Positions 3,690 to 27,217 of a stretch of DNA of 32,000 nt are shown piece by piece. Origin of the DNA: Nitrosospira multiformis ATCC 25196. GTDB taxonomy: Bacteria > Pseudomonadota > Gammaproteobacteria > Burkholderiales > Nitrosomonadaceae. Under the pieces are notes generated by a model. The model saw nothing but the letters and a program-made list of their open reading frames with translations. It made no database searches and was not told the origin of the DNA. Positions within the stretch are counted from its first letter, which is position 1. Each line of letters begins with the position of its first letter. Location: the NCBI RefSeq assembly GCF_000196355.1, contig NC_007614.1, positions 1,860,001 to 1,892,000 of the forward strand, read 5' to 3'. The translations under genes and the position numbers were made by a program.

Positions 3690-4082
3690 ATCTAAAGTTT
3701 TCCGAGTAGTTCAACCTTATAAAGCCTCATTTTCCCTTGTCCCATGGGGTTCCCCAAGTGGACGATCTGCGAGTGCTCAGCGGGATTATTTACGTGATAA
3801 GGAACGGCCGTAATGGAAGGACGCTCCCCAAAACCACGACCCGCACAAGGCGCTCTATAATCGCTTCGCGCGTTGGAGCGGATGAGCGTTTTCACCCGCA
3901 TTTTTGCGGGACTGGCCAAGCCAGAACACGGACTGGCTGATGATTGACCCGCGCATCTCAAGCCACGTCCTACGGCGCTCAGCCCGTTAAAAAGGAGATG
4001 TCTCCCGCTGTATCGGACGTACTAAGGGCGCCTGAACTCCAAACTTCACGCCGTCTGCGATGGCTGGGGAAATCCTCTCGTC
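3690..4082 (+). pseudogene. Degraded, 3'-truncated remnant of an IS5-family (IS427-group) transposase gene, related to the intact IS at 21717..22559
   Basis: Frames give PLSHGVPQVDDLRVLSGIIYVIRNG (intact copy: PLSHGVPRVDDLRVISGIIYVIRNG). After frameshifts they give KGA-LNSKLHAVCDGWGNPL (intact: KGGLNSKLHVVCDGQGKP). There are multiple frame breaks and no recognisable terminal inverted repeats. Confidence 0.75.
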
Positions 4083-4278: not shown

Positions 4279-4365
4279 TTACGAATAATCCGGTTCTGTT
4301 GCAATGTGGAAAGAAAAACAACGCGATGGCAAATCAGCAAAAGTTGACGGATGTCATCATAAATA

Positions 4366-4413
4366 CACTTAAAACATAAACAAGTTTACAAAGTTTCGAA
4401 ATTCACATATTCT
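4366..4413 (+). promoter_or_regulatory. Putative promoter of paralog 1: conserved box CACTTAAAACATA, -35 TTTACA, 17-nt spacer, -10 TATTCT
   Basis: Box at 4366..4378, TTTACA at 4385..4390, TATTCT at 4408..4413. The same architecture occurs upstream of the other two paralogs. Confidence 0.45.
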
Positions 4414-4472: not shown

Positions 4473-4913
4473 GTGATGATGAAGATCGATAAAATTATCG
4501 CTACTACGTTCTCCCTGCTCAGCTTTATAGTCGCGGTGAGCTTTCCCGTTCCGGCAACGGCCGAGGCGGAAAGTTTTGATGTCGATGCAGCGTCGCGTAA
4601 CGCGGTGACCAGAAGTGATCACGAAGCTGTCGCCAGATATTACGACAACGCGGCCGTGGAGATGCATGCAAAAGCACAAGAGCAGAAACGCCTGCTCGAG
4701 CAGTATGAGGATAAAAGCTATCTCTACGGTAGAGAAGCCCAGGACATGCTGGCCCATACTTACGCATTGGCACGCAAGTATGAGAAGGAGACGCAGGCCA
4801 ATACGAGGGAAGCAGCCCTGCATCGGCAAATGGCTGCGCAACTCGAAGAGAACACTCCCCTCACCCCCAGTGGCAGTCTTCAAAAGCTGAGCACGATTTC
4901 AGACCTGCATTAG
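4473..4913 (+). CDS. Exported helical protein, uncharacterised family, paralog 1 (signal peptide ...VPATA/EAE)
   Basis: 146-aa ORF. The likely ATG is at 4476, after GAGG. It has a hydrophobic N-terminal signal and a ~75-aa core shared with 5883..6359 and 8955..9383 (YE[ED]K.YLYG..AQD...HT.AL..KYE......REAA.HRQ). Confidence 0.8.
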   Translation: MMMKIDKIIATTFSLLSFIVAVSFPVPATAEAESFDVDAASRNAVTRSDHEAVARYYDNAAVEMHAKAQEQKRLLEQYEDKSYLYGREAQDMLAHTYALARKYEKETQANTREAALHRQMAAQLEENTPLTPSGSLQKLSTISDLH

Positions 4914-5259
4914 GCTCTGTTCCTGCCTGAGTTAACCTCAGGATAATGTAATCGGAAACGGCACTGTACGGATGAACACCTGTATATTGCTATCAATGTT
5001 TCATGCCTTCAGGCTATCTTACCCCTCGGTTCCGGGAATACTTTCCCTCTTTTCTGAATTGTTGCGGAATCTCAACCGTTACAAAACCCGCTGGACCCTC
5101 AAAATTTTCTACGTCACTCTGGAACAACGTCCCAGTAAACGCCTTTCTGATCAAGCAAAAAGCTCAATGCCGGATCAGTCATTTTTCGACTGATCGAAAA
5201 ACGGAAATTAACGCAAGATTGACAAGCCTCAACTAAAGCAAGTTTTTATCGAAAAATAC

Positions 5260-5288
5260 TTTACAAATGTGATTTCATCACATATTCT
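5260..5288 (+). promoter_or_regulatory. Putative promoter (TTTACA-17-TATTCT), a duplicated copy of the paralog-1 promoter core
   Basis: TTTACA at 5260..5265 and TATTCT at 5283..5288. The string TCACATATTCTTCAC is shared exactly with 4403..4417. Confidence 0.4.
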
Positions 5289-5363
5289 TCACACATGCTT
5301 CACAAACGTAGTAAGAAGTAACAAACGCAGCTTCAAAAAGTAGCTTTTTTCGCTATTGATTTC

Positions 5364-5564
5364 GTGGAGGGTATGATGATTAAGGGCAGAACAGTGGGCA
5401 TTTTCTATTCGATGAGCCTGGCCGTTGCGCTGGTTTTTGCTGGGTTTAATGCTGCGGGTGTCGCCACTGCCAAAGAAAACAGCTATTCCATCGCAACTGT
5501 CGATAAGAGCAATTACAGAGTAGCCGCCTTACAAAAATCCGTTGTACTTACAGAAGTTCGCTAA
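5364..5564 (+). CDS. Small exported protein (about 63 aa from the ATG at 5373/5376), function unknown
   Basis: GGAGG lies just upstream of ATGATG. The signal-peptide-like N-terminus is MMIKGRTVGIFYSMSLAVALVFAGFNAAGVATA/KE. The 5' end (ATGATGA.TAAG) resembles the 5' end of paralog 1. It lacks the family core. Confidence 0.4.
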   Translation: MEGMMIKGRTVGIFYSMSLAVALVFAGFNAAGVATAKENSYSIATVDKSNYRVAALQKSVVLTEVR

Positions 5565-5785
5565 CATTCTTTCAAAATAGAACAAACGCGCCGATGCAAT
5601 GTTGAGTGTATTTTTCTGCCCATTGCATCGGCACCCTCCTGGTAACATCCTTCCTCAGTAAAAATCCCTGCGCTATTGCCGCAGGATGCGCATATTTCCC
5701 CGGGATAACCGCTACGGCACTCGGCTCCATTCGCTATCCGCCGGGCTCTCGAGAACCTGGCTGTAACCCTGTACCTTGCCTGAGC

Positions 5786-5831
5786 CACTTTAAACATAAA
5801 AATTGACGAAGCAACTTACATAAACTAGCAT
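5786..5831 (+). promoter_or_regulatory. Putative promoter of paralog 2: box CACTTTAAACATA, -35 TTGACG, 17-nt spacer, -10 TAGCAT
   Basis: Box at 5786..5798, TTGACG at 5803..5808, TAGCAT at 5826..5831. The -10 is weak. Confidence 0.4.
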
Positions 5832-5882
5832 TAAGCACGTTCACCGTTTTTTACCTGCTAAATCCTTTGCTCCGGTAAAACA

Positions 5883-6359
5883 ATGAGACAGGCTTGCCCT
5901 CTGCTTATCATATTGATTTTACTAATACCCGTTGCCCAGGCGGCTGATCATTCTGGTATCCGGATCACCCAGACCCTTGCACAGAATGATGAGCAGAACC
6001 CAAATGCTCGCGAGGTGGTCGAGAGATATTTCGAAGATGAGCTCATGAAAAAACATGAGACGGTTGCCAAATACTACGAAGATGAAGCAGGAAAGTCACG
6101 GGCGAAGATAAGGGAACTGAGGGGGATGCTTGCGCATTACGAGGAAAAAAGCTACCTGTACGGAAAAAAAGCCCAGGACCTGCAAGCACATACTGAAGCC
6201 CTGGTAAGAAAATATGAAGAGGCTGCAAAGGCAGATGCAAGAGAAGCTGCCTCTCACCGTCAAATTGCTTTGGCATTTAAAGAAAAAAATCACCCTGATT
6301 CGAAAACTCAAAAAGTAAGCATTGTTGAATCCTATGGTTCGACTGTTCCATTAAAATAA
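5883..6359 (+). CDS. Exported helical protein, uncharacterised family, paralog 2 (signal peptide ...PVAQA/ADH)
   Basis: 158-aa ORF. Signal peptide MRQACPLLIILILLIPVAQA. Core HETVAKYYEDEAGKSRAKIRELRGMLAHYEEKSYLYGKKAQDLQAHTEALVRKYEEAAKADAREAASHRQIA. Confidence 0.85.
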   Translation: MRQACPLLIILILLIPVAQAADHSGIRITQTLAQNDEQNPNAREVVERYFEDELMKKHETVAKYYEDEAGKSRAKIRELRGMLAHYEEKSYLYGKKAQDLQAHTEALVRKYEEAAKADAREAASHRQIALAFKEKNHPDSKTQKVSIVESYGSTVPLK

Positions 6360-6760
6360 GAGTAAAGAGCGGAGGCAGGAGCATACGGAGAAATTCCAGC
6401 GGCATAGCCAAACTCCCACTTTTTCCCTTCATCGCCGCGGACGGCCGCGTCCTGCGCCAGTCCATCAAGATACTTCCCCAGATTCCCTTACTGACGACTT
6501 ATTGGAGCCGGCTGGAATCCGCTAAATGATGATGGCCTGGAGGCTACCGATATCCGCTGAAACCTGGTCGTTTGTCCTGCCTATCAACTGCCGAGCCGGC
6601 TTCCAGCCATGATATGTTGAACAGGTTATCTGGAATATGAGCATTACAAACAATTACCGCGATAATCAGCCGGTCCACAATAATTTATGAGCGGTGGATT
6701 CCAGATAAATAAGAAGCGAATGGATTTGAGCCTTCGATATTCAACTTCTCAAGGATACTT

Positions 6761-7165
6761 ATGCAAAATTTCCTCCGAAATGATGATTTAGGTAAATTGA
6801 TTCTGCGCCTGACTGTAGGAGTATTGATACTATTTCACGGGCTGCACAAAATACTTAACCCCGCATCCCTTGACTTCATCAGCAAGCAACTGACCGGCAT
6901 CGATTTGCCACCCGTACTGGCTTACGGCGTTTACCTCGGTGAAGTCGTCGCGCCGCTAATGGTGATCTTCGGCCTTTTCTCGCGTCTCGGCGGTTTGCTG
7001 ATCTTCGGTAACATGATTTTTGCGCTTTTATTGGCCCACTCTGATCAGTTATTTACGTTCACCAACACGGGAGGCTGGGCGCTTGAATTGCAAGGGTTTT
7101 ATTTATTCTCGGGTCTTGCGATATTTTTCCTGGGTAGCGGAAGATGGGCCGTCCGGCAAGACTGA
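6761..7165 (+). CDS. DoxX-family inner-membrane protein
   Basis: 134-aa ORF with four predicted TM helices. N-terminal DLGKLILRLTVGVLILFHGLHKI is typical of DoxX. An AAGGA RBS lies 5 nt upstream. Confidence 0.8.
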   Translation: MQNFLRNDDLGKLILRLTVGVLILFHGLHKILNPASLDFISKQLTGIDLPPVLAYGVYLGEVVAPLMVIFGLFSRLGGLLIFGNMIFALLLAHSDQLFTFTNTGGWALELQGFYLFSGLAIFFLGSGRWAVRQD

Positions 7166-7228
7166 CCAAGCCCCCCATGTCAATGTTCATTATGGTTACA
7201 CATCAAAATAACAAAGGAATCTCTACTG

Positions 7229-7942
7229 ATGGAATCAACCGATCTCCGACAATACAGATGGCATGAATACGCCGACCTGACCGCCCTTCAGGATGCAGCG
7301 GTGGCTGCTATCCTGGATAGCGCCGCCTCTGCCATTCAGGAGCGTGGACGCTTTAATCTCGTTCTTGCCGGGGGTGAATCACCGCGTGCAATCTATCGGA
7401 GATTATGCAGCGCCCCAGCAGATTGGTCTCTCTGGCATATCTATTATGGAGACGAACGCTGCATGCCACCCACTCAGGAAGAACTGAATTCCCATATGGT
7501 AGAGGAAGCATGGCTTAGCCATGTGCCCATTCCTCCAGTCCAGATTCATACCATCCCCAATGGTCCTCGCGCAGATAAAGCTGCGGAAGCGTACGCACAA
7601 ACACTGCGCGGTGCAGGTTATTTCGACTTGACGCTGCTCGGGCTCGGTTCGGATGGCCACACCGCAAGCCTGTTCCCGGGTAATGATTGGGGAATGGCGC
7701 CGGATTCGCCCGATACACTGGCAATATTCAATTCCCCCAAGCGGCCCCCACAGCGCGTGTCACTGAGTGCGGCACGTTTAAATCGTTCGCGAAGGATAAT
7801 ATTTCTGGTAAGCGGTGAATCAAAGCATAAGGCGGTAGCAAGGTGGCGCGCCGGGGAGAATATACCGGCCAGGGCTATAATGGGAGAAAACGGTGTGGAT
7901 ATACTTGTGGAATCGACGTTACTGTTGCCGTCGAAGGGGTGA
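7229..7942 (+). CDS. pgl: 6-phosphogluconolactonase
   Basis: 237-aa ORF with FNLVLAGGESP, YYGDERC and LLGLGSDGHTASLFPG motifs of the DevB/Pgl family. Confidence 0.88.
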   Translation: MESTDLRQYRWHEYADLTALQDAAVAAILDSAASAIQERGRFNLVLAGGESPRAIYRRLCSAPADWSLWHIYYGDERCMPPTQEELNSHMVEEAWLSHVPIPPVQIHTIPNGPRADKAAEAYAQTLRGAGYFDLTLLGLGSDGHTASLFPGNDWGMAPDSPDTLAIFNSPKRPPQRVSLSAARLNRSRRIIFLVSGESKHKAVARWRAGENIPARAIMGENGVDILVESTLLLPSKG

Positions 7943-7983
7943 TGGGATTTAAATCAATAAAAAATAAAATAGAAAATAGAGGC

Positions 7984-8013
7984 AAAAAAAAGGAGTAGAA
8001 ACTACTCCTTTTT
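7984..8013. terminator. Bidirectional rho-independent terminator between convergent pgl and the regulator gene
   Basis: An A8 run, GGAGTAG, loop AAA, CTACTCC, then a T5 run (AAAAAAAAGGAGTAGAAACTACTCCTTTTT). A U-tract follows the stem on both strands. The stem overlaps the stop codon of 8002..8643. Confidence 0.65.
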
Positions 8014-8643
8014 GGATACAAACCTGAATCGACATAATTCTCCCCCGCGAGCCATACATTCATGTTGCTCAACCTTGCTGTCGGTAAAAGTTTCCATGAG
8101 GCCGCGGTCGAGGTGGCAGATTTCCATATCTTTTGCCGCCATCTGGTGGAATACGCAATTATCCGCTTCAATCACCTTTTCGCCGTTTGGCAAGGTAGCA
8201 CTTTTCGCGTTGTAGCCAAGCTGATCCATTACTTCTGTCAGCTTGTCAATTTTTTCCTCCTTTGTATTCAAGTCCGGATATTGACCCCGTATCTGCTCTG
8301 CGATACCTGCACCGATTTCGGACAAACGCTTACCCATGTTTTCAACGCCTTCTTCGCGCCGAACCGAGGCCAACACCAGTTGGGCCAGCCAGGAATACTG
8401 GCGGGGAAAACTCTCCTTTCCAAGTTCGGTAAGAACGTAAAGCTGTTGAGGCCTTCCGCCCCCTGACGGGCGTGTATTTCCAGCCGTTACCAGACCGGCG
8501 CCCTCCAGGGAAGAAAGATGTTGCCGAACTGCGTTTCTTGTAATCTCCAGACCTTTTGAAAGTTCATCCACGCTCAGGCCTGGCCTGCTCCCACGCAAAA
8601 GCTTGAGCAATTGCTTCTGCCGTTCACCTATCGTATTTAGCAT
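8002..8643 (-). CDS. ArsR-family (COG2345-type) winged-helix transcriptional regulator with a Cys/His-containing C-terminal sensor-like domain
   Basis: 213-aa ORF. The N-terminal wHTH is LSVDELSKGLEITRNAVRQHLSSLEGAGLV...GGRPQQLYVLTELG. The C-terminus has ADNCVFH, EICHLD and HECMARGGELCRFRF, as in COG2345 regulators. It is divergent from paralog 3. Confidence 0.8.
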   Translation of the reverse strand: MLNTIGERQKQLLKLLRGSRPGLSVDELSKGLEITRNAVRQHLSSLEGAGLVTAGNTRPSGGGRPQQLYVLTELGKESFPRQYSWLAQLVLASVRREEGVENMGKRLSEIGAGIAEQIRGQYPDLNTKEEKIDKLTEVMDQLGYNAKSATLPNGEKVIEADNCVFHQMAAKDMEICHLDRGLMETFTDSKVEQHECMARGGELCRFRFVSKKE

Positions 8644-8726
8644 CTGATATACCCCCTTCCACCCCCGTCATATGAGAATTAGCGGCTTCATTATAGACTA
8701 CTGGCAGCCTGCGCCTTGTCTTTAGA

Positions 8727-8774
8727 CACTTTAAACATATAATAGTTGACAAAATAGCTATAATTTCTTACAAT
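8727..8774 (+). promoter_or_regulatory. Putative promoter of paralog 3: box CACTTTAAACATA, -35 TTGACA, 17-nt spacer, -10 TACAAT
   Basis: Box at 8727..8739, TTGACA at 8746..8751, TACAAT at 8769..8774. It is near-consensus sigma70 and implies a ~180-nt leader. Confidence 0.5.
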
Positions 8775-8844
8775 TCCTTCATAAATAAAGAATAATCGGG
8801 GCCCGATCCGCCTTGATTCTGCTTTCACCCTAACCCTGCCCCTG

Positions 8845-8869
8845 ATTTCAGGCAGAGCTGTCCTGAAAT
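8845..8869 (+). promoter_or_regulatory. Inverted repeat / hairpin in the predicted 5' leader of paralog 3
   Basis: ATTTCAGG (8845..8852), a 9-nt loop, then CCTGAAAT (8862..8869). The 8-bp stem is perfect. Function unknown. Confidence 0.3.
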
Positions 8870-8954
8870 TGTGATTTATTCTACTCCACTGTTTTTTGTA
8901 ATCTTTTCGCTATCTTTTGGCATTAACCGCATTGATTTTAAAGGAAAGTGCGAC

Positions 8955-9383
8955 ATGAAAACAAGGAGAATTTTCGCCATTTTATCCTTCAGTTTACTGG
9001 CTGCATGTGCGCAAATGAGCCCGCATGAGGCTGTCCAGAACACGAATATTCGCAGGGCAGCACAGAACGCCAGAACTCCCAGTGATCATGATGCGTTGAG
9101 CAACTATTTTGAGAACGCGGCCAAGGAAATGCAAACCAAGGTTGATGAGCAAAAAAAGCTACTCGAGTATTATGAAGAGAAGGGGTATCTCTACGGACGC
9201 CAAGCGCAGGATTTGAAGTCGCATACCGCAGCCCTCCTTCATAAATACGAGGCAAATGTGGAAGAGAACATCAGGGAAGCTGCCGCCCACCGGCAAATGG
9301 CGCTAGAGCAGGCGAAACGTGAATATGCCATACGTGAAGGACAGACTGTGAACGCGGAGGGTCGCGCTCACCCCTCGAAGTAA
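8955..9383 (+). CDS. Lipoprotein member of the uncharacterised exported helical family, paralog 3
   Basis: The ATG at 8955 is internal to track ORF 8871..9383. MKTRRIFAILSFSLLAAC carries a lipobox (LAAC). Core HDALSNYFENAAKEMQTKVDEQKKLLEYYEEKGYLYGRQAQDLKSHTAALLHKYEANVEENIREAAAHRQMA. Confidence 0.85.
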   Translation: MKTRRIFAILSFSLLAACAQMSPHEAVQNTNIRRAAQNARTPSDHDALSNYFENAAKEMQTKVDEQKKLLEYYEEKGYLYGRQAQDLKSHTAALLHKYEANVEENIREAAAHRQMALEQAKREYAIREGQTVNAEGRAHPSK

Positions 9384-11284: not shown

Positions 11285-11989
11285 TCAATCGTTTCGCGAA
11301 AATAGAAGCGTATGATGCTGCGCGTGACGGCTGATCACCCGGGTAGAACGAAGCCCGGCTTCCCCGGCCATTCTTCGCAGGGTAGAAAGGCATTCAGGAT
11401 AATCGTGATCGCGAACGTGCGCGCATGCTTCTTCCAGTTGATCCGGCGGCACGCTCGTCCACTTTTCCCGCATGAAATTGAGATAATCGTCCAGAAAATC
11501 CTCCCGTGCCTCATTTTCTTCACGTACCACATCCACCAGTATCAGCCAGCCTTCTTTTGAGAGGCAGTGTCGCGCCGCCTGGAAAAACCGCGCCTTTTCA
11601 TCCAGATTCAGATGATGAATGGCAAACCCGGAGAAAATAATATCCCACGTCTGATTCATGGACTCGATGGTCTGCAGGAGCTCTCCTTGGGTCAGGCTGA
11701 CTTCGCCTGGCACTTCTGCGAGATATTCCCTCGCCTCCTTCAACGCAGCCTCGGACAAATCCACACCTTCGTATCTCAAAGGAGGAGAGCGTTTCAGGCA
11801 AGGCGCAAGATAGCGGGCATTGCCACATCCCAGGTCCAGCAGGCGATACTCTGCCCGCTCAGCACGCGACCTCAAAAGCTCCCCAACCCCGGCATAGATC
11901 TCCCGGTGAAACATGTAGTTGTGCTCCGTGATCAGATCATAAAGCGACCAGGACCGGGTGAAGATGGCAACAGGTTCAGCGGATAGCAT
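11285..11989 (-). CDS. Class I SAM-dependent methyltransferase
   Basis: 234-aa ORF with motif I LLDLGCGNARYL and the later IIFSGFAIHHL and GWLILVD. Confidence 0.8.
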   Translation of the reverse strand: MLSAEPVAIFTRSWSLYDLITEHNYMFHREIYAGVGELLRSRAERAEYRLLDLGCGNARYLAPCLKRSPPLRYEGVDLSEAALKEAREYLAEVPGEVSLTQGELLQTIESMNQTWDIIFSGFAIHHLNLDEKARFFQAARHCLSKEGWLILVDVVREENEAREDFLDDYLNFMREKWTSVPPDQLEEACAHVRDHDYPECLSTLRRMAGEAGLRSTRVISRHAQHHTLLFSRND

Positions 11990-13111: not shown

Positions 13112-13500
13112 AGGGAAGTTCAGTTTTGCCCTCATCTCAGCCCATCGCTGCTGCTTCGAATTGCGTATCCGCTACGAGTTCTTCAAGTAGTTCCCGTACA
13201 TCCACCTTTTCGGGCATGAGCGGAATCCACTTCTGCTTCCAGGCGGGAGAGTTCGAGTAGGCGCCCGATGAGCTCATTCAAGCGTTCTATTTCCGTCTCC
13301 ATGCGGCTCAATTCCTTTTCAGCCTGCTCGCCTGACCGCTGCCACACAAGCTCCAGGGCGACCTGTAACCTTGCGAGAGGAGAACGAAGCTCATTTGAGG
13401 CGTCGCTCAGCAATTGCCGCTGCGCCAAGTACCCTCTCGAGTGGTTTCTGCACAATACCTGGAACACAGCCATCCCGCCCGATCACGTTCTTTAAAATGC
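13112..13500 (-). pseudogene. CpxA-like sensor histidine kinase remnant (HisKA region only, frameshifted, no ATPase domain)
   Basis: QRQLLSDASNELRSPLARLQVALELVWQRSGEQAEKELSRMETEIERLNELIGRLLELSRLE matches the CpxA H-box region, but with Asn in place of the phospho-accepting His. After a frameshift it reads PEKVDVRELLEELVADTQFEAAAMG and then ends. An upstream KPLERVLG lies in yet another frame. Confidence 0.6.
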
Positions 13501-13868
13501 TTCCAAGCTTCACTCTCTGCATTGATACTGCAATAAACCCCCGTCAAAATAGAAGCTTCGATATAACCGGGAAGGAGTTATGCCTAAATACGCCGTCTAT
13601 GCGAGAACTCATACAGGACATGTCAAACGAGTAAGAAATTTTTCCAGCAATTATCCCCACGATCTTTTCAGGCGCCATTTCCATCAAGGATCGCTCAAGG
13701 GTTTTCCAGAAAACACCGTATTCTGGATAAACCCTGAAGGCCCAAGCATCGGCTTTGCGCCGCTCCTCGAAGTACAAAAAACAGCTGATTGAAAAAAGAA
13801 AAGGCAAAAACAAAAAAACCAGCGGAGTTAAGAGCTAGTTTCAAAATGAGCTTGCTCAGCCGATCGAA

Positions 13869-14003
13869 ATACTTCTTCTTCCAGATATAAAACGTGGCTT
13901 CAGATATGCCAGGACTGCGACACACATCCGTTACTGCCGTACCGGCCTCTGCCTGCCGCAACGCATACGCTACTTGAACCTCGGTGAATCGGGATCTCTT
14001 CAT
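13869..14003 (-). pseudogene. IS3-family transposase OrfA stub (first ~45 codons)
   Basis: MKRSRFTEVQVAYALRQAEAGTAVTDVCRSPGISEATFYIWKKKY matches the HTH N-terminus of IS3/IS407-group OrfA. Similarity is lost afterwards and there is no orfB. Confidence 0.6.
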
Positions 14004-14669
14004 CGCTTCATACTCCTTCAATAAGGGAGCCAGAAGGCGACTTTACTCTAATTTAGAACTGCTACAGTTTTTGGGGATGACGTCATTTGCAGTCTTCATG
14101 ATGAAACTCCTTTCCCCTCTCTTATATAAAGATTTCCCAGGCTATCAAAAATTTATAGAAGGATATGCGGCTTTCGGATTTATTTAGATATAGCACCTCC
14201 TGCCTGGAGCGCTAGAGACAATTGCGCTCTCTAAAGCGCCGAGGACTGGAGGGATGGCGGACACTACGATGTCCAGTACCAGGTCACTGCGTGTTCGGAT
14301 GCAGTAAATTTTTGAGTAAGTACCTAAACGTCTTGGCTCTATTGCTTTTTCAACGGCGGTAAAGTTGCTGCTTTGGCAACGCGAGCTTCTTGATGACGTG
14401 ACAGTCATCCTTCGCGTAAGTTGCCGTGACGGTAAAGGCAAAGAGCAAACCAAGCGCGATATGTCGTCTCAGCGATATGGGTCTCATTGTTAAATAACGG
14501 AATGATCGAGGAAGAGCAGGAAACAACGTCCGGCACGGCTAGCTGCTAAAAATCACACTGCACCCTCGAACTGAAAAGGGTGAGGATTTGATGCTTTAGG
14601 CGTGCTTGAGGGTTCTTATAGGTCGAAATAATTAATACTGGAAATGAAAACTATATCTTTTAATGATTG

Positions 14670-15008
14670 TTATTCCGGTCTGGAAGGGGAATCTTCCTGA
14701 TGACGTTCTCCGCTGCTGATATTCCCACTTCCACTCACATCTATGATGTAAATTTTGCCTGCGCCGTCCTGATAGGTGTTGGCGGTCTGCATGACTGTGC
14801 TGAAAATATTGTCCACCTGCTCATCGGAGGCAAAGATTTCGATGCGTTTTTTCGGCATATAAGGATCGAAACTGCTATCGGCGACCCGCTCTCTGCCAAA
14901 ACCATGGCAATCCGAGACACTCATGCCTGGGAAATCCGGAATTTCAAGTAACGCCTGCGTTACCTTGGATAACATGAAGGGCTCAATGTATGCGCGGATT
15001 TCTTTCAT
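14670..15008 (-). CDS. PII (GlnB)-like signalling protein, last gene of the efflux operon
   Basis: 112-aa ORF. MKEIRAYIEPFMLSKVTQAL...GMSVSDCHGFGRE...KRIEIFA...GAGKIYIID follows the GlnB fold pattern. The T-loop region is about 6 residues shorter than in E. coli GlnB. Confidence 0.78.
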   Translation of the reverse strand: MKEIRAYIEPFMLSKVTQALLEIPDFPGMSVSDCHGFGRERVADSSFDPYMPKKRIEIFASDEQVDNIFSTVMQTANTYQDGAGKIYIIDVSGSGNISSGERHQEDSPSRPE

Positions 15009-20789: not shown

Positions 20790-21788
20790 ATCTTTACCGC
20801 TGAGTATTACCTAAGCAAGGTGAGGGGCTTTCGGTCCGGATAATTCCGGCACCAGGAAAATGCCTTTCGCACGCCTTCAAGCATGTTCAAAACTCCTACG
20901 AGATGATACGTGAGAGCCTCTGGTACCGAGGGAATAACGCCCGCCTGGTGAGAATCAGGTAGAACCAAAAGAGCGCAGCCTGGTATGTCACATGATAATC
21001 AAATGTTCTTCAACGAGTGTACTTTCCATGAGACTTTTGCTGGGCGAAGATGATGATGGTACTCGCCCCCCACTTTAGTAGATACTCTGCTGGCGGTTGA
21101 AATATGCGCGCGCCTGTGAGGACCGCCGGAATTTTTCTTGGGGATTCCAGGGATTGGAAACAGAAGAAGCAGAAGAAGCAGAGCGCATCAGGCTTCCCAG
21201 AAACAGATCGACGACACGCAGCTGCTTAAGGAACAGCTAATGATGGAGCTGCGGTATGGATTGTGCAGCACCCTCTCAAACATGCAGAAGCGGCGAAGAT
21301 ATTGATGGTTTCGCGCCCGTGTGTATCGGATCAACAAAAAAACCACCAAAATAACTATTTATGGGGTCACCATTCCATACCGAGGTTCTATCTAAAGGGA
21401 TTTTCTGAAGACCAGGCGATATGACGGCATCGACGGGTTAATCCAAATTGCCCCGTCTGCTGATGCCCTCAGTCGAACTCAATTTTCTTGATCCAACGAT
21501 CTTGCTCGTCAAAATAATCGACCTCATAGAATATTGTTGTCAAGGTATACACTTTTTCGACAACGATTTTTGCGGCTCCGCCCCGCAAGGATTGAACGTA
21601 GTGTTGCCGTTCGATCGAAAGAGACGACAGGGGAACGACCTTTTCGAACTCTAATCCTCTATTGTAATTAAACTCCACCGAATAGATCAACGTCTTCCAG
21701 GTCAATCTAGCCTCTAGGTTCAGGACCTATTAATTTCATGATTCACGAATAGGATCAAATGTGATTCACTTATGGCGGAGGTGCTGCC

Positions 21789-22157
21789 ATGAGAGATTTG
21801 TTTTACCTGTCGGAAACACAGTTCAACCGTATAAAACCTTATTTTCCCTTGTCCCACGGAGTTCCCCGTGTTGATGATCTGCGGGTGATCAGCGGGATCA
21901 TCTACGTCATTCGGAATGGCCTGCAATGGAAGGATGCCCCCAGGGAATACGGGCCGCACAAGACACTGTATAACCGTTTCGTGCGCTGGAGCCGACTGGG
22001 CGTGTTCAACCGCATCTTTGTGGAACTGACCGGTAAAGAGGAAACGCCCGAGAGGCTGATGATCGACGCCACGCATCTGAAGGCCCACCGCACGGCAGCC
22101 AGCCTGCTAAAAAAGGGGATGTTCCCCGCCGTATCGGTCGCACAAAGGGCGGCCTGA
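21789..22157 (+). CDS. IS5-family transposase OrfA
   Basis: 122-aa ORF. MRDLFYLSETQFNRIKPYFPLSHGVPRVDDLRVISGIIYVIRNGLQWKDAP is typical of the IS5/IS427 N-terminal domain. Confidence 0.9.
   Translation: MRDLFYLSETQFNRIKPYFPLSHGVPRVDDLRVISGIIYVIRNGLQWKDAPREYGPHKTLYNRFVRWSRLGVFNRIFVELTGKEETPERLMIDATHLKAHRTAASLLKKGMFPAVSVAQRAA
22109..22115 (+). other. Candidate -1 programmed ribosomal frameshift heptamer A AAA AAG joining OrfA to OrfB
   Basis: The orfA frame reads CTA AAA AAG GGG. A -1 shift reads ...KKGDVPRRIGRTKGGLNSKLHVVCDGQGKP, running continuously into OrfB. Confidence 0.65.
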
Positions 22158-22171
22158 ACTCGAAGCTTCAT

Positions 22172-22546
22172 GTGGTCTGCGACGGTCAGGGCAAGCCTGT
22201 GGCCATGCTCCTGTCCGAAGGGCAGATGAGCGATTACAAGGGAGCACGTGTGCTGCTGCCGTCATTGCCCAAAGCCAAAACCCTGATTGCAGACCGCGGC
22301 TATGACGCTGCCTGGTTCCGGGCAGCGTTGCGTGCCAAAGGCATGACGCCCTGCATACCGACAAAAAGGAATCGCAAAATCCAGATCAAATACGACAAGA
22401 CCCTCTACAGGCAAAGGCACAGGATCGAGAACATGTTCGCTCGGCTCAAGGACTGGCGCAGGATCGCCATGCGTTACGACCGCTGTGCCCATACCTTCTT
22501 CTCTGCCATCTGTATCGCCGCAACTGTCATCTTCTATCTCAATTAA
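22172..22546 (+). CDS. IS5-family transposase OrfB (DDE domain part); probably expressed as an OrfAB fusion from about 22115
   Basis: 124-aa ORF with ADRGYDA, TPCIPTKRNRK and YRQRHRIENMFARLKDWRRIAMRYDR, the DDE_Tnp_1-type C-terminus. Confidence 0.9.
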   Translation: MVCDGQGKPVAMLLSEGQMSDYKGARVLLPSLPKAKTLIADRGYDAAWFRAALRAKGMTPCIPTKRNRKIQIKYDKTLYRQRHRIENMFARLKDWRRIAMRYDRCAHTFFSAICIAATVIFYLN

Positions 22547-23102
22547 TGAGTCCTGAGCCTAGTTCTTCAGCCAAAAAAATCACTCTAAGATGGGGATCAT
22601 TTGCAAGTTTGATATGAACAATTGCGCTGTTTAGCATCAATACGCCAGAGATCACCATGGCGCTGTAGCCAACCCGCATGAATAGTCCTCTAGATACCCT
22701 GGGCAAGACGAATTTCATGAAGCCAGAGGATAGAATGGCGGCTAGCGCAACTATCAGGCCGAGTCCTATGGTTTTTAGCTGAAACAAACCCAATGCCGCA
22801 TAAAGATAAAGCTTGATTAAATGCAATAAGACTTCATTCGCAGCACGGGTTGCAATAATTTCATGGCTGCCCAGACCGTAGCGAAAATAAAAACGGTTAA
22901 ACAGGACCCCCACGGCACCGGTCAAACCAGAAATAAAGCCCGCCAAAAAACCGACCATTCTGAGCTGCCATGGTGGAACAGGAAACAATACGACGTGCTT
23001 TTGCTCCTGTTTTCTAAAAAGCCAGGGAAGATTAGAGATAAGAAACAAGCTCATGCACAACTCCAGATACATCGGCTCCAGATAACTTAGGCTCAGGACT
23101 CA

Positions 23103-23477
23103 TTAATTGAGATAGAAGATGACAGTTGCGGCGATACAGATGGCAGAGAAGAAGGTATGGGCACAGCGGTCGTAACGCATGGCGATCCTGCGCCAGTCCT
23201 TGAGCCGAGCGAACATGTTCTCGATCCTGTGCCTTTGCCTGTAGAGGGTCTTGTCGTATTTGATCTGGATTTTGCGATTCCTTTTTGTCGGTATGCAGGG
23301 CGTCATGCCTTTGGCACGCAACGCTGCCCGGAACCAGGCAGCGTCATAGCCGCGGTCTGCAATCAGGGTTTTGGCTTTGGGCAATGACGGCAGCAGCACA
23401 CGTGCTCCCTTGTAATCGCTCATCTGCCCTTCGGACAGGAGCATGGCCACAGGCTTGCCCTGACCGTCGCAGACCAC
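23103..23477 (-). CDS. IS5-family transposase OrfB, copy 2
   Basis: The 124-aa product is identical to 22172..22546. Confidence 0.9.
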   Translation of the reverse strand: MVCDGQGKPVAMLLSEGQMSDYKGARVLLPSLPKAKTLIADRGYDAAWFRAALRAKGMTPCIPTKRNRKIQIKYDKTLYRQRHRIENMFARLKDWRRIAMRYDRCAHTFFSAICIAATVIFYLN

Positions 23478-23491
23478 ATGAAGCTTCGAGT

Positions 23492-23860
23492 TCAGGCCGC
23501 CCTTTGTGCGACCGATACGGCGGGGAACATCCCCTTTTTTAGCAGGCTGGCTGCCGTGCGGTGGGCCTTCAGATGCGTGGCGTCGATCATCAGCCTCTCG
23601 GGCGTTTCCTCTTTACCGGTCAGTTCCACAAAGATGCGGTTGAACACGCCCAGTCGGCTCCAGCGCACGAAACGGTTATACAGTGTCTTGTGCGGCCCGT
23701 ATTCCCTGGGGGCATCCTTCCATTGCAGGCCATTCCGAATGACGTAGATGATCCCGCTGATCACCCGCAGATCATCAACACGGGGAACTCCGTGGGACAA
23801 GGGAAAATAAGGTTTTATACGGTTGAACTGTGTTTCCGACAGGTAAAACAAATCTCTCAT
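23492..23860 (-). CDS. IS5-family transposase OrfA, copy 2
   Basis: The 122-aa product is identical to 21789..22157. Confidence 0.9.
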   Translation of the reverse strand: MRDLFYLSETQFNRIKPYFPLSHGVPRVDDLRVISGIIYVIRNGLQWKDAPREYGPHKTLYNRFVRWSRLGVFNRIFVELTGKEETPERLMIDATHLKAHRTAASLLKKGMFPAVSVAQRAA

Positions 23861-24658
23861 GGCAGCACCTCCGCCATAAGTGAATCACATTTGATCCTAT
23901 TCGTGAATCATGAAATTAATAGGTCCTGAACCTAGCATTTTTACGCCTAAAATCACTCCTACCATAGCTGTTGGCAGAAACAATTTAGCCATATCCCAAC
24001 GAATGGCTTTGAAAAATATCCAGATTCTGGAAAATGAGCTTGTTACGGCTCCAAGAGTAAGTGCTGCTGGAACTTGATTTACCGGAAGAGAATAGCCAAG
24101 GATGGGAATCAATAATAATCCGGCGCCTCCTCCACAAAATGCGCTAAGTGAAAATGCCAGAAAGGCGGCGAGAAAGAGGTAGAGATACAACATGATAGTG
24201 AAAGAAGCCGGTAAAGAAGCAGGCTGGACTTAAGCTAAGTTTAGTACGATCATCCAATTACGGCCGGGAGGCTTATCTGCAGCTGCTGGAGTTGCCCCTA
24301 TGAAACCGGACAGGATGCGGTTAGTGTTAGTAATTGACCGCGGGATGAATAGTCATGGGGATTTCATCTCCAGCCCTTTATGAGATACTCATTGTAATCC
24401 TCGAACCCCTGGTCAAACTGTGACATGACGGTTTTTACATGGAGGACCATCAATGCACATGGACATAATCCCTTTTAAGGGTTTCACGAAGATTCGCCAT
24501 TGGCGCATACAGTTCTGGCCCTCTCGGACTTGGAGCAGCTTATCGATGGCTAAGCTGATCGTTCGTGAGCGGTGGGACCAATAGCTTGCAGATTCTCCGC
24601 GCACTTCCGGGCAGGGTGCTAGCCTTAATATCACATAATTTCGCTCGTTATCCTTCGT

Positions 24659-27217
24659 ATGGACAAGCCACCTGAAGTTGATCCGCTGGCCGGCTTGACT
24701 CATGATGAAGCATCCCGGCGCCTCGCCGAGAATGGATATAACGAACTTCCTTCAGCAAAGCCGCGCAACGTGCTCGCCATCGCAATTTCAGTGGCGCGTG
24801 AGCCCATGTTCATGCTTCTGGTCGCCTGCGGCACAATCTATCTGCTCTTGGGAAGCAAGCAGGAGGCCCTGATGCTGCTTGGCTTCGTATTCGTTGTCAT
24901 GGGCATCACTTTTGTTCAGGAGCGCAAGACCGAAAGGGCGCTGGGGGCGCTGCGCGATCTTTCCAGTCCTCGCGCGCTGGTTATCCGCGGAGGAAAGCAA
25001 GAGCGCATTCCCGGCCGTGAGGTTGTTCGTGGCGATCTCATCATCTTGTCTGAGGGAGATCGTGTTCCAGCGGACGCCATTCTTCTGGAATCTGCTCACA
25101 TGTCCGTCGATGAATCGGTCCTCACCGGTGAATCTGTCCCGGTGCGCAAACGGGTAAATGATGGCCATCCTCGGGAAATCGGCGCGCCGGGCGGGAATGA
25201 CTTGCCATTTATCTTTTCCAGCACGCTTGTCGTGCAGGGAAAAGGAGTGGCGGTGGTAATCCGGACAGGCACTGACACCTCTATTGGCCAGATCGGCAAG
25301 GCGCTCGCGACCATAGAGCAGAAACCAACCCGCTTGCAAAGCGAGGTCGCGCGGGTAGTGAAGCAAGTATCCGGAATCGGTTTCGCGCTGGCGGGCATTG
25401 TTGCGCTTTGGTATGGAGCCACTCGAGGGGACTGGCTGAATGGCTTTCTCGCCGGGTTGACGCTCGCAATGGCGCTTCTTCCCGAGGAATTGCCTGTTGT
25501 CCTCACGGTCTTCTTGGGATTGGGCGCATGGCGCATCTCGAAGGAAAAAGTGCTGACTCGGCAAATTCCCGCAATCGAAATGCTCGGGGCGGCGACCGTG
25601 CTTTGTGTTGACAAGACAGGGACTCTCACCCAAAACCGGATGGCGGTTGCACGGATATTCAGCGCAGGCCAGGTCTTCGATGCCGCGGGAAAAGATCCAT
25701 TTGCTCTGCCAGAAAAATTCCATGAAACCCTTGAATTCGCCGTTCTGGCAAGCCACCGGGATCCGTTTGACCCGATGGAGATCGCAATCCGCTACTCCGG
25801 ACACGAGTTGCTGGCGGATACCGAGCATTTGCATGGAGATTGGCAGTTGATGAGCGAATATCCCCTCTCGCATGGCTTACTGGCCATGTCCCGCGTCTGG
25901 CAGTCTCCTGATCAGGTGAACTATATCGTTGCCGCCAAGGGATCGCCCGAAGCGATCATCGACCTGTGCCATCTTGATGCGGATTCTGCGCAAGGAATTG
26001 TCATTCAGGTCAATGACTTGGCTGATCAGGGCTTGCGCGTGCTGGGAGTAGCCAAGGCTGAATTCAACGAGCAGCGGCTGCCTGATCTCCAGCATGATTT
26101 CCCGTTTCAGTTCCTCGGTCTGATTGCCTTGGCGGATCCTATCCGCCTGCAGGTTCCTGCTGCAATCGAGGAAAGCCGGGCTGCGGGGTTGAGGGTCGTA
26201 ATGATTACCGGGGATTACCCGGCTACGGCAATGTATATTGGGCGGCAGATCGGCATTCAATCGCCCGAAAACGCGATCTCGGGGTCGATGCTGGAGAGCC
26301 TGAGCGATGCCGAGCTTCAGGAGCGTATCCGGTCGGTAAATATCTTCTGCCGAGTCGTGCCCGAACAAAAGCTTCGCATCGTGGATGCATTCAAGGCGAG
26401 TGGCGAAGTCGTGGTCATGACGGGTGATGGAGTCAATGATGCGCCCGCACTGAAGTCGGCGGACATTGGTATTGCCATGGGGAAGCGGGGGACGGACGTC
26501 GCGCGCGAGTCTGCCGCGCTGGTGCTGCTAAATGACGATTTTTCTTCAATCGTCTCGGCAGTGAGACTTGGACGACGGATTTTCGACAATCTGCAAAAGG
26601 CCAGCGCTTTCATCATTGCGGTCCACCTCCCGATCGTTGGTCTGTCTGTCATTCCCGTGATAATGGGCTTGCCCGTAATTCTTATGCCCGTGCATATTCT
26701 ATTCCTGGAATTGATCATCGACCCGGCATGCTCCATCGTTTTCGAGGCAGAGCGCGAGGAGGCGGATATCATGCGGCGACCTCCGCGATCACCGGATACC
26801 CCGCTTTTCGATCGTGAACTGTTGGTCCTGGGATTTGGGCAGGGCTTGGTTCTGCTTTTGATCGTACAGGCAATATTCAGCTTTGCGCTCTACCGCGGGC
26901 TCGGAGCCGATGAGGCGCGAGCAATAACTTTCGTGACTCTGGTCTTGGCCAGCCTGGGTCTGATTTTTACAAACCGGTCTCGATCAAGATCGGCATTTGC
27001 CTCCCTTCAATCGCGGAATACGGCTCTTTGGTGGGTGACAGGAGGAGCAATGGGCGGCCTCGGGCTGGTTATCTTCGTTCCGGCACTAAGCGAGTTGTTC
27101 TCTTTTGGCAGGCTACAGCTTGCGGAGGTCGCATTTTGCCTTTTTGCCGGCTTGGCAACATTCGGTCTATTTGAAACCATGAAGCTGATCCGGGCACACA
27201 AGCAAGTATCTGCGTGA
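24659..27217 (+). CDS. Cation-translocating P-type ATPase (P2-type), substrate not assignable
   Basis: 852-aa ORF. It has an N-terminal Cation_ATPase_N-like GLTHDEASRRLAENGYNEL, TGES, the TM4 motif LPEELPVV, the phosphorylation site CVDKTGTLTQN, then MITGD and GDGVNDAPALK. Confidence 0.92.
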   Translation: MDKPPEVDPLAGLTHDEASRRLAENGYNELPSAKPRNVLAIAISVAREPMFMLLVACGTIYLLLGSKQEALMLLGFVFVVMGITFVQERKTERALGALRDLSSPRALVIRGGKQERIPGREVVRGDLIILSEGDRVPADAILLESAHMSVDESVLTGESVPVRKRVNDGHPREIGAPGGNDLPFIFSSTLVVQGKGVAVVIRTGTDTSIGQIGKALATIEQKPTRLQSEVARVVKQVSGIGFALAGIVALWYGATRGDWLNGFLAGLTLAMALLPEELPVVLTVFLGLGAWRISKEKVLTRQIPAIEMLGAATVLCVDKTGTLTQNRMAVARIFSAGQVFDAAGKDPFALPEKFHETLEFAVLASHRDPFDPMEIAIRYSGHELLADTEHLHGDWQLMSEYPLSHGLLAMSRVWQSPDQVNYIVAAKGSPEAIIDLCHLDADSAQGIVIQVNDLADQGLRVLGVAKAEFNEQRLPDLQHDFPFQFLGLIALADPIRLQVPAAIEESRAAGLRVVMITGDYPATAMYIGRQIGIQSPENAISGSMLESLSDAELQERIRSVNIFCRVVPEQKLRIVDAFKASGEVVVMTGDGVNDAPALKSADIGIAMGKRGTDVARESAALVLLNDDFSSIVSAVRLGRRIFDNLQKASAFIIAVHLPIVGLSVIPVIMGLPVILMPVHILFLELIIDPACSIVFEAEREEADIMRRPPRSPDTPLFDRELLVLGFGQGLVLLLIVQAIFSFALYRGLGADEARAITFVTLVLASLGLIFTNRSRSRSAFASLQSRNTALWWVTGGAMGGLGLVIFVPALSELFSFGRLQLAEVAFCLFAGLATFGLFETMKLIRAHKQVSA

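Follow-up and report, generated by a model that had tools for sequence, protein, structure and literature searches.

An undescribed family of exported, predicted two-helix proteins in methanotrophs and nitrifiers, its link to heavy-metal efflux systems and its expansion in Nitrosospira

A family of small exported proteins, represented by three genes (P1, P2 and P3) on the chromosome of Nitrosospira multiformis ATCC 25196, appears from sequence comparison to belong to none of the described families against which it was tested. In methanotrophs and nitrifiers its genes typically close, or in some cases open, heavy-metal efflux operons of the CusCBA/CzcCBA type, or they stand beside P1B-ATPases. 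The three genes lie in a stretch of 32,000 nt (contig NC_007614.1, positions 1,860,001 to 1,892,000, forward strand), which is called the window here and to which coordinates refer unless another locus is named. Ammonia and methane oxidisers rely on periplasm-exposed copper and iron enzymes and are inhibited by metals in soils and wastewater, and periplasmic metal management in these organisms is only partly understood. The association with efflux systems is the main evidence for a metal-related role of the family. Our preferred explanation, in which we place about half of our belief, is that its members are periplasmic metal-binding buffers or chaperones that were ancestrally accessories of efflux systems and that in Nitrosospira were expanded, had their ligands retuned and came under separate sensors.

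An earlier note, made from the DNA sequence alone, had described three paralogous open reading frames (ORFs) in the window; all three were found where it placed them, and the core peptides that it quoted are exact substrings of the ORFs. P1 (Nmul_A1625) occupies 4476-4913, P2 (ABB74926, presumably Nmul_A1626) 5883-6359 and P3 (ABB74930, presumably Nmul_A1630) 8955-9383, all on the forward strand. Two starts have been deposited for P1, namely ATG 4476 (145 amino acids, WP_238529783) and ATG 4479 (144 amino acids, ABB74925, which is Nmul_A1625), and no record in the protein collection corresponds to the 146-amino-acid product of a further alternative start, GTG 4473. P2 and P3 match ABB74926 and ABB74930 exactly, and P2 is also identical to the cluster representative P0002. 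The core identity of P1 and P3, estimated by eye in the note at about 45 of 74 positions, was counted as exactly 45/74, compared with 40/74 for P1/P2 and 34/74 for P2/P3, with 31 columns the same in all three; the invariant motifs were reproduced across P1-P3 as well. Pairwise BLASTP gave E-values of 1e-18 to 1e-34, and the three are true paralogues; a tblastn search of the window found no fourth copy. Orthologues of P1 show 72-90% identity. The export signals, two of signal peptidase I (SPase-I) type and one lipobox, were borne out by the N-termini, which were read directly without a signal-peptide predictor: a hydrophobic core is followed by ATA|EA in P1, P2 carries an AQA|AD cut and an N-terminal extension, and the lipobox LLAAC is present in P3, where position +2 is Ala. 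P1-P3 are read as Sec-exported periplasmic proteins, of which P3 has a lipid anchor, probably in the outer membrane.

The possibility that these ORFs are non-functional, being either chance ORFs or decaying duplicates, is effectively refuted. P1-P3 are not in the supplementary tables of a batch-culture proteomics paper on N. multiformis, and the remnant of an insertion sequence (IS) lies next to P1, both of which would fit such an explanation. Against it stand hundreds of intact orthologues and paralogues with conserved motifs and helical periodicity, and a synteny with a regulatory gene that is kept across genera. More than 1,000 homologues are under purifying selection, and a ribosome-binding site and a conserved promoter lie 5' of each of the three genes, from which it follows that the genes are real. 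A literature search for Nmul_A1625, Nmul_A1626, Nmul_A1630 and the neighbouring locus tags found no paper.

The view that the core fits no known family held up in searches of Pfam, NCBIfam and the PDB and in hhalign comparisons, none of which gave a confident match. In Pfam and NCBIfam scans nothing exceeded the cut-offs for P1-P3, 51 diverse relatives or 12 further members, and the sub-threshold matches were inconsistent (HAUS6_N, Tropomyosin, Apolipoprotein), which is attributable to helical composition. The sole recurring weak signal was the NCBIfam family LIC10421/LIC12816 of Leptospira, to whose profile positions 1-104 (of 111) residues 3-110 of P1 align with E = 3.5e-4 and 20.6 bits, against a cut-off of 100; this was the best score obtained, only 3 of the 51 relatives matched at E <= 0.01, and membership was rejected. 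UniRef names Q2Y8J6 (P1) and Q2Y8J1 (P3) as DUF4398 domain-containing, perhaps on the basis of an older model: the current Pfam model (PF14346) gave no match at E <= 10 for P1-P3 or for the UniRef-labelled relatives P0011, P0040 and P0102, and none at E <= 1 for members of the short subfamily described below. A precomputed label, PF26467, on the relative P0424 could not be identified, and a Pfam scan of P0424 reports no such family. Sequence and profile searches of the PDB returned designed coiled coils only and no homologous solved structure, and a Foldseek search of the PDB with the predicted P3 structure returned generic hairpins such as EsxB, none at E <= 0.001. A WXG100/EsxB-like assignment was dismissed, as the fold likeness was non-significant (E about 0.3) and the Pfam matches sub-threshold; WXG100 proteins have a WXG motif at the turn, no Sec signal and a type VII secretion context, in contrast to the YLYG turn of family members and the signals, of Sec or lipoprotein type, that these carry. 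The resistance-associated families that seem nearest in kind did not match either. No LTxxQ motif was found in P1, P2 or P3 by regular-expression search, in line with the note. An alignment of 51 family sequences gave hhalign probabilities of only 0.15%, 0.09% and 0.27% against E. coli Spy, CpxP and ZraP, respectively, and the Pfam models LTXXQ and Metal_resist were without a match (P1-P3 at E <= 10, the 51 relatives at E <= 0.01). The remark that the proteins do not resemble CnrX agrees with the absence of Metal_resist (CnrX/NccX) from these profile scans, which are the only comparison that bears on it. The CusF_Ec family of Pfam also gave no match, and the predicted fold of the present family is all-helical, not a beta-barrel.

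An exhaustive profile search recovered 675 clusters at 50% identity with E <= 1e-3, of which 216 reached E <= 1e-10, and all named members came from Nitrosomonadaceae, Methylococcales methanotrophs or Ca. Nitrotoga. A long branch marked by YEEKSYLYG, which holds P1-P3, had 144 matches in reference genomes, all of them in Nitrosospira, Nitrosovibrio or other Nitrosomonadaceae. A short branch consists of lipoproteins of about 112-120 amino acids from Methylobacter, Methylomonas, Crenothrix, Methylococcus, Methyloglobulus, Methyloterricola, Methylocaldum, Methylomagnum and Ca. Methylocalor, and was found in Nitrosospira and Ca. Nitrotoga too. Only five of 72,556 plasmids carried the family, all from methanotrophs. 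The local expansion seen by the earlier note proved stronger than it had stated: counted over the best 80 of 144 loci, and therefore as lower bounds, there are at least 11 copies in strain Nl5, at least 10 in NpAV and at least 8 in N. multiformis Nl7, with a median of at least 5 across the 13 named strains sampled, and some 12-kb stretches contain arrays of 3-5 copies.

Gene neighbourhoods were compared in 14 lineages of the short and divergent branches, and in 12 of them a family gene lies within three genes of a CusA/CzcA-type resistance-nodulation-division (RND) pump or an HMBD P1B-ATPase. The metal-related role that the earlier note had offered as inference is supported by these neighbours. 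The commonest layout is OEP, CusB/CzcB adaptor, ACR_tran and family gene on the same strand with a short gap. The family gene is directly 3' of ACR_tran in loci L082, L084, L091-93 (where CusF and a P1B-ATPase are also present), L094-96, L097-99, L101, L106 and L107, and 5' of an OEP-MFP-RND set in L102 and L108; one lineage has it ahead of the pump operon. Nitrosospira sp. 56-18 has, in sequence, OEP, a CusB that contains a CusF domain, CusA, the family gene, CusF and a P1B-ATPase, and in Methylococcus sp. EFPC2 two tandem copies stand between the pump and a type-II cation ATPase with a methyltransferase. A family gene in Methylocaldum lies between an RND pump and a ZraSR-like kinase with a sigma-54 regulator. 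The plasmid-borne genes are inside mercury, chromate and Tn3 islands.

In Ca. Nitrotoga the family gene follows RND, ATPase and methyltransferase genes and abuts a complete bufferin cluster (L086, 6867-9184), which comprises a BufA1 precursor, an MbnB-like enzyme, HvfC and DoxX together with a pair of genes for an extracytoplasmic function (ECF) sigma factor and its anti-sigma factor. Bufferins are copper-chelating peptides (PMC11626156). Other settings were also observed. In Crenothrix (L088, 2380-7407) the family gene is found among redoxin, DUF4266, DUF3570 and ApbE genes, a periplasmic redox or flavinylation setting. In about 26 Nitrosospira loci (L034-L073) one paralogue type always comes after an HisKA_3 kinase of about 810 amino acids and a NarL-type response regulator, and in 11 of these an SBP_bac_6/TOBE_2 ATP-binding cassette importer, possibly for Fe(III), is alongside.

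Position next to a pump would also be expected of a structural accessory, that is, a small lipoprotein that docks onto tripartite RND pumps or outer-membrane porins and affects their assembly or gating with no binding of metal. Consistent with this are the short gaps at which the family gene directly follows the pump gene in the same orientation, the lipobox in 110 of 120 members of the short subfamily and a BBP2 porin neighbour that recurs in 8 Nitrosospira loci and in Methylotetracoccus. However, neither pump nor porin is found near many copies, among them P1, P2 and the arrays of 3-5 copies; half of the copies in Nitrosospira are soluble rather than lipid-anchored, and the most conserved His, Tyr and Ala lie on an inward stripe and form no surface patch; we consider a purely structural role improbable.

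The earlier note had read from the pattern a pair of long helices connected through a YLYG turn. This is supported by an AlphaFold2 model of P3, built on a 30-sequence alignment, in which helices 42-80 and 82-137 meet at G81 (predicted local distance difference test score, pLDDT, 83 on average and 86-98 across the core). The model of a pump-linked member is also a hairpin (pLDDT 87.7), and the fold is predicted to be a long antiparallel two-helix hairpin. In P3 numbering, and with percentages given for the Nitrosospira branch, the representatives at 50% identity and the short subfamily, in that order, three histidines are conserved: H45 (100/85/99%), H90 (95/71/100%) and H112 (100/84/100%). 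The short pump-linked subfamily has in addition H51 (97%), H66 (99%), C91 (99%) and M108 (100%), and the long Nitrosospira branch shows Y51 (98%), Q66 (86%), T91 (97%) and E108 (94%) at the same four positions. This correlated replacement of soft by hard residues suggests ligand tuning.

Conservation along both helices has a helical periodicity of 3.6-3.7 residues. Among 2000 shuffles, this was reached by only 2 in the case of helix A and by 51 in that of helix B. In heptad terms, which is reasoning from sequence spacing and not from coordinates, the a layer is rich in Ala (A56, A109, A116, and position 49, which is Ala in most relatives), and the d layer is made up of H45, F/Y52, M59, Q/H66, Y73 and Y80 in helix A and T/C91, Y98, N105 and H112 in helix B. 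Four ligand-type positions (H45, H/Q66, C/T91 and H112) fall in this d layer, the most conserved one, while H51 and H90 occupy c positions that flank it and M108 a g position. A tight layer of Ala beneath an inward stripe formed by His, Tyr, Cys and Met would be unusual for a structural coiled coil and is what may be expected of a bundle that binds a metal or a cofactor.

That cofactor might in principle be haem or another redox group, bound through His and Tyr in a four-helix bundle made of two hairpins that serves periplasmic electron transfer or haem handling. The core-facing invariant His and Tyr would suit such a protein, and the host organisms have haem-rich periplasms. On the other hand, there is no CXXCH motif, which excludes c-type haem; to our knowledge, Sec-exported proteins with non-covalent b-type haem are uncommon; no haem-handling or cytochrome maturation genes recur in the contexts examined; and metal efflux dominates these contexts. 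We regard a haem or redox bundle as very improbable.

The helical hairpin raises another alternative, in which the proteins are analogues of ZraP, CpxP and Spy, that is, periplasmic signalling modulators or ATP-independent chaperones that tune a stress response by binding to envelope proteins in an unfolded state or to a kinase's sensor domain, with metal at most a cofactor or signal. Besides the predicted fold, the position of about 26 Nitrosospira genes directly downstream of an HisKA_3 kinase and a NarL-type regulator points this way, and the Methylocaldum layout mirrors zraP-zraSR of E. coli. In contrast, hhalign probabilities to the three proteins stay below 0.3% and the LTxxQ motif is missing, most pump-linked copies have no adjacent kinase, and the way in which Tyr, Thr and Glu take the place of His, Cys and Met at fixed positions points to tuned ligands more than to a client-binding surface. 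A chaperone or modulator function is a possibility that we take seriously, yet judge to be unlikely.

Returning to metal buffering as the preferred explanation, its regulatory part depends on a promoter architecture common to the three genes, in which the box ACTTTAAACAT is followed after 5-7 nt by a TTGACA-like hexamer. The P1 promoter (4365-4413, forward strand) has the box ACTTAAAACAT at 4367-4377, a -35-like TTTACA at 4385-4390 and a -10-like TATTCT at 4408-4413. At P2 (5787-5831, forward strand) the box ACTTTAAACAT lies at 5787-5797, with a -35-like TTGACG at 5803-5808 and a -10-like TAGCAT at 5826-5831; and the P3 promoter (8726-8774, forward strand), which matches 11 of 12 consensus positions, has ACTTTAAACAT at 8728-8738, a -35 element TTGACA at 8746-8751 and a -10 element TACAAT at 8769-8774. 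The hexamer follows the box after 5 nt at P2 and after 7 nt at both P1 and P3. A 28-nt pattern occurred twice (0.00 expected by chance), and the 11-nt core three times (0.43 expected). In 1.2 Mb of family loci the box, written as ACTT[TA][TA][AC]ACA[TC], was found 63 times, and 56 of the occurrences preceded a family gene of the same orientation by no more than 450 bp, 52 of these with a -35 element at fixed spacing. It was present at P1-, P2- and P3-type copies and at copies linked to the BBP2 porin, and absent from the roughly 26 loci linked to HisKA_3/NarL genes and from the short branch. Protein identity among the paralogues is only 35-50%, and the retention of the box despite this divergence indicates selection; P1-P3 are best seen, on these sequence patterns, as members of one regulon. 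Rfam models found nothing in the window, which speaks against a riboswitch behind the long leader of P3.

The most likely controller of the box regulon is a candidate regulator encoded divergently from P3 (8002-8643, reverse strand), which according to Pfam combines an ArsR-type helix-turn-helix with a C-terminal four-Cys V4R/MetOD1-like domain and is SufR-like, the first spacing of its four Cys being C-X12-C. P3-type genes are always divergently paired with this regulator, in 30 loci that include some without DoxX and pgl. The pair is present twice in each of Nitrosovibrio Nv6, N. tenuis and Nitrosospira Nl5, and its synteny is conserved across genera. In the intergenic region between them, 13 modules have an invariant block that consists of GACACTTTAAACATAAAATAG, then TTGACA, 17 nt and TAnAAT; in the window this block is the P3 promoter, and every regulator-P3 module retains it.

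If these lines are combined, the members of the family would bind transition-metal ions through the triad H45, H90 and H112, to which H51, H66, C91 and M108 may add ligands in the pump-linked subfamily, and would act as periplasmic metal buffers or chaperones that shield the envelope in metal stress, probably as dimers or larger assemblies in which the stripe of ligands is buried. The soft ligands at the four positions would have been replaced in Nitrosospira by Tyr, Gln, Thr and Glu, with a shift in metal preference as the implied consequence, and many copies may have left the pump operons and, P1-P3 among them, come under the single promoter architecture of box ACTTTAAACAT, 5-7 nt and a TTGACA-like -35 element, thereby forming a regulon. 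A more far-reaching version, which we hold only tentatively and think rather unlikely to be correct in full, describes the proteins as an unrecognised class of periplasmic 'His/Ala-zipper' metal binders whose Nitrosospira regulon is under an Fe-S (SufR-like) sensor, so that cytoplasmic Fe-S or redox damage would be coupled to periplasmic metal buffering; in this tentative version the hosts so far are almost only methanotrophs and ammonia oxidisers, as bacteria dependent on copper membrane monooxygenases, together with their close associates.

Several observations weigh against metal buffering and its proposed regulation. P1-P3 share no operon with any pump, that of the window included, and the genes around them encode pentose-phosphate enzymes, DoxX and a regulator. 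In the Nitrosospira branch to which they belong, two His as well as the Cys and the Met by which the pump-linked subfamily resembles a metal binder have been lost, the inward-facing ligand geometry is that of heptads, and P1-P3 are missing from the proteomics tables mentioned above. Two of the 14 lineages have no metal context, the family gene being in the DUF4266/DUF3570/ApbE cluster of Crenothrix and in a urease/porin locus, and adjacency within mobile metal-resistance islands could be partly hitch-hiking. Foldseek comparison of the P3 and pump-linked models with the PDB gave only non-significant matches (E >= 0.2), all to generic hairpins. With respect to the regulator, alignment to the NCBIfam model SufR_cyano (TIGR02702) is full-length (E = 1.7e-15) at 57.3 bits, which is far under the cut-off of 178.8 and thus indicates resemblance, not membership; that it binds the box is something we infer.

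The note had pointed to a heavy-metal RND operon and a P-type ATPase close to P1-P3. The operon is indeed present, 5.3 kb from P3 (14670-20789, reverse strand), and encodes OEP, a CusB/CzcB-type adaptor, a CusA/CzcA RND pump (Pfam; TIGR00914 at 1049 bits, above cut-off) and a P-II-like protein, whereas the ATPase at 24659-27217 is a type-II cation pump (Ca/Mg-like) and not of the P1B kind. The P-II-like gene (14670-15008, reverse strand) is the last of the operon, and Nmul_A1638, a P-II family protein that we take, by locus-tag order, for its product, is in the N. multiformis proteomics tables. On the reverse strand 3' of the operon are a HisKA-like kinase fragment (13183-13473) and an IS3 OrfA-like ORF (13695-14021); judged by eye, the region 13183-14021 resembles a kinase of the CusS/CzcS type that an IS has interrupted. 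Two inverted copies of a two-ORF IS of 852 bp, 99.9% identical (21714-22564 and 23084-23935), lie around a TauE/SafE-type fragment (22539-23072), an arrangement that looks like a composite transposon. Genes for a type-II (Ca/Mg-like) ATPase and an S-adenosylmethionine-dependent methyltransferase stand side by side, next to members of the family, in Methylococcus sp. EFPC2 and Ca. Nitrotoga (L084, L086), and the window holds both gene types about 13 kb apart (ATPase 24659-27217, methyltransferase 11285-11989); the pairing in metal islands looks like a conserved one.

The gene order around P1 and P2 is tal, gnd-like, P1, P2, DoxX and pgl, and N. tenuis has tal-gnd-DoxX-pgl without P1/P2. An IS-related remnant (3710-4030, forward strand; tblastn E = 3.5e-19, 43% amino-acid identity to orfA of the window IS) is placed exactly between the gnd-like gene and P1. 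Because of this remnant and the uninterrupted cluster of N. tenuis, P1/P2 were probably inserted into tal-gnd-DoxX-pgl by a mobile element, and that they adjoin DoxX and the pentose-phosphate genes is probably incidental. The DoxX gene beside P2 was considered as a link to bufferin clusters such as that of Nitrotoga and set aside as probably an accident of insertion. An ORF of 66 amino acids with a signal-like N-terminus lies between P1 and P2 (5364-5564); it is conserved in N. multiformis strains only (72-94% amino-acid identity), has no family match, and may encode a small exported protein or reflect conserved intergenic DNA.

These results define a widespread family without a curated model or structure, characterised by association with heavy-metal efflux, subfamily-specific candidate ligands, expansion in Nitrosospira and a dedicated box with a candidate regulator, and its restriction to methanotrophs, ammonia oxidisers and Ca. 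Nitrotoga adds to its interest. If metal binding is true, periplasmic metal handling would gain in this family a further component besides CusF, CopK, ZraP, Csp and the bufferins, and the family would provide markers of metal stress in nitrifying and methanotrophic communities. If the Fe-S-sensor reading is also true, it would represent a new layer of copper or metal homeostasis specific to nitrifiers and methanotrophs.

The likely role, a periplasmic accessory of metal resistance, is already of a known kind, and several known systems can be compared with the family. Accessories of the CusF/CopK/CzcE type are likewise small exported proteins in or beside CusCBA/CzcCBA operons, with CusF even adjacent in Nitrosospira sp. 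56-18, where the family gene is between cusA and cusF, and periplasmic metal handling would be the role in common. However, the family has no sequence similarity to them, its prediction is all-alpha, whereas the fold of CusF is a beta-barrel, and its ligands would be His-based, with Cys and Met in one subfamily only. ZraP, CpxP and Spy are exported, all-helical, hairpin-based proteins induced by envelope or metal stress, and the family resembles them in export, in the helical hairpin and, in Methylocaldum, in its place by a ZraSR-like two-component system; it differs in the missing LTxxQ motif and the negligible hhalign probability (<0.3%). DUF4398 is a helical, lipoprotein-associated domain whose function is likewise unassigned, and the small Leptospira lipoproteins LIC10421/LIC12816 are of similar length and also without a known function. 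Csp1-type copper storage proteins of methanotrophs are exported helical bundles with a core lined by metal ligands, which the d layer of the family resembles, but they are four-helix proteins with many Cys, whereas the family has at most one Cys, and no sequence or fold match between the two was found. The best Foldseek neighbour of the pump-linked model was Dld1 of the fungus Serendipita indica (TM scores 0.62/0.77, root-mean-square deviation 1.5 A over 74 columns, 19% identity, E = 0.2). Dld1 (PIIN_05872, PDB 5LOS), a member of the DELD family, is reported to regulate metal-ion homeostasis (PMC9252488; PMC13655452). It is a secreted monomer and, like the predicted fold of the present family, an antiparallel hairpin of two helices with much His and Ala, but it comes from a fungus and acts in the setting of the plant apoplast, and the likeness is an analogy only.

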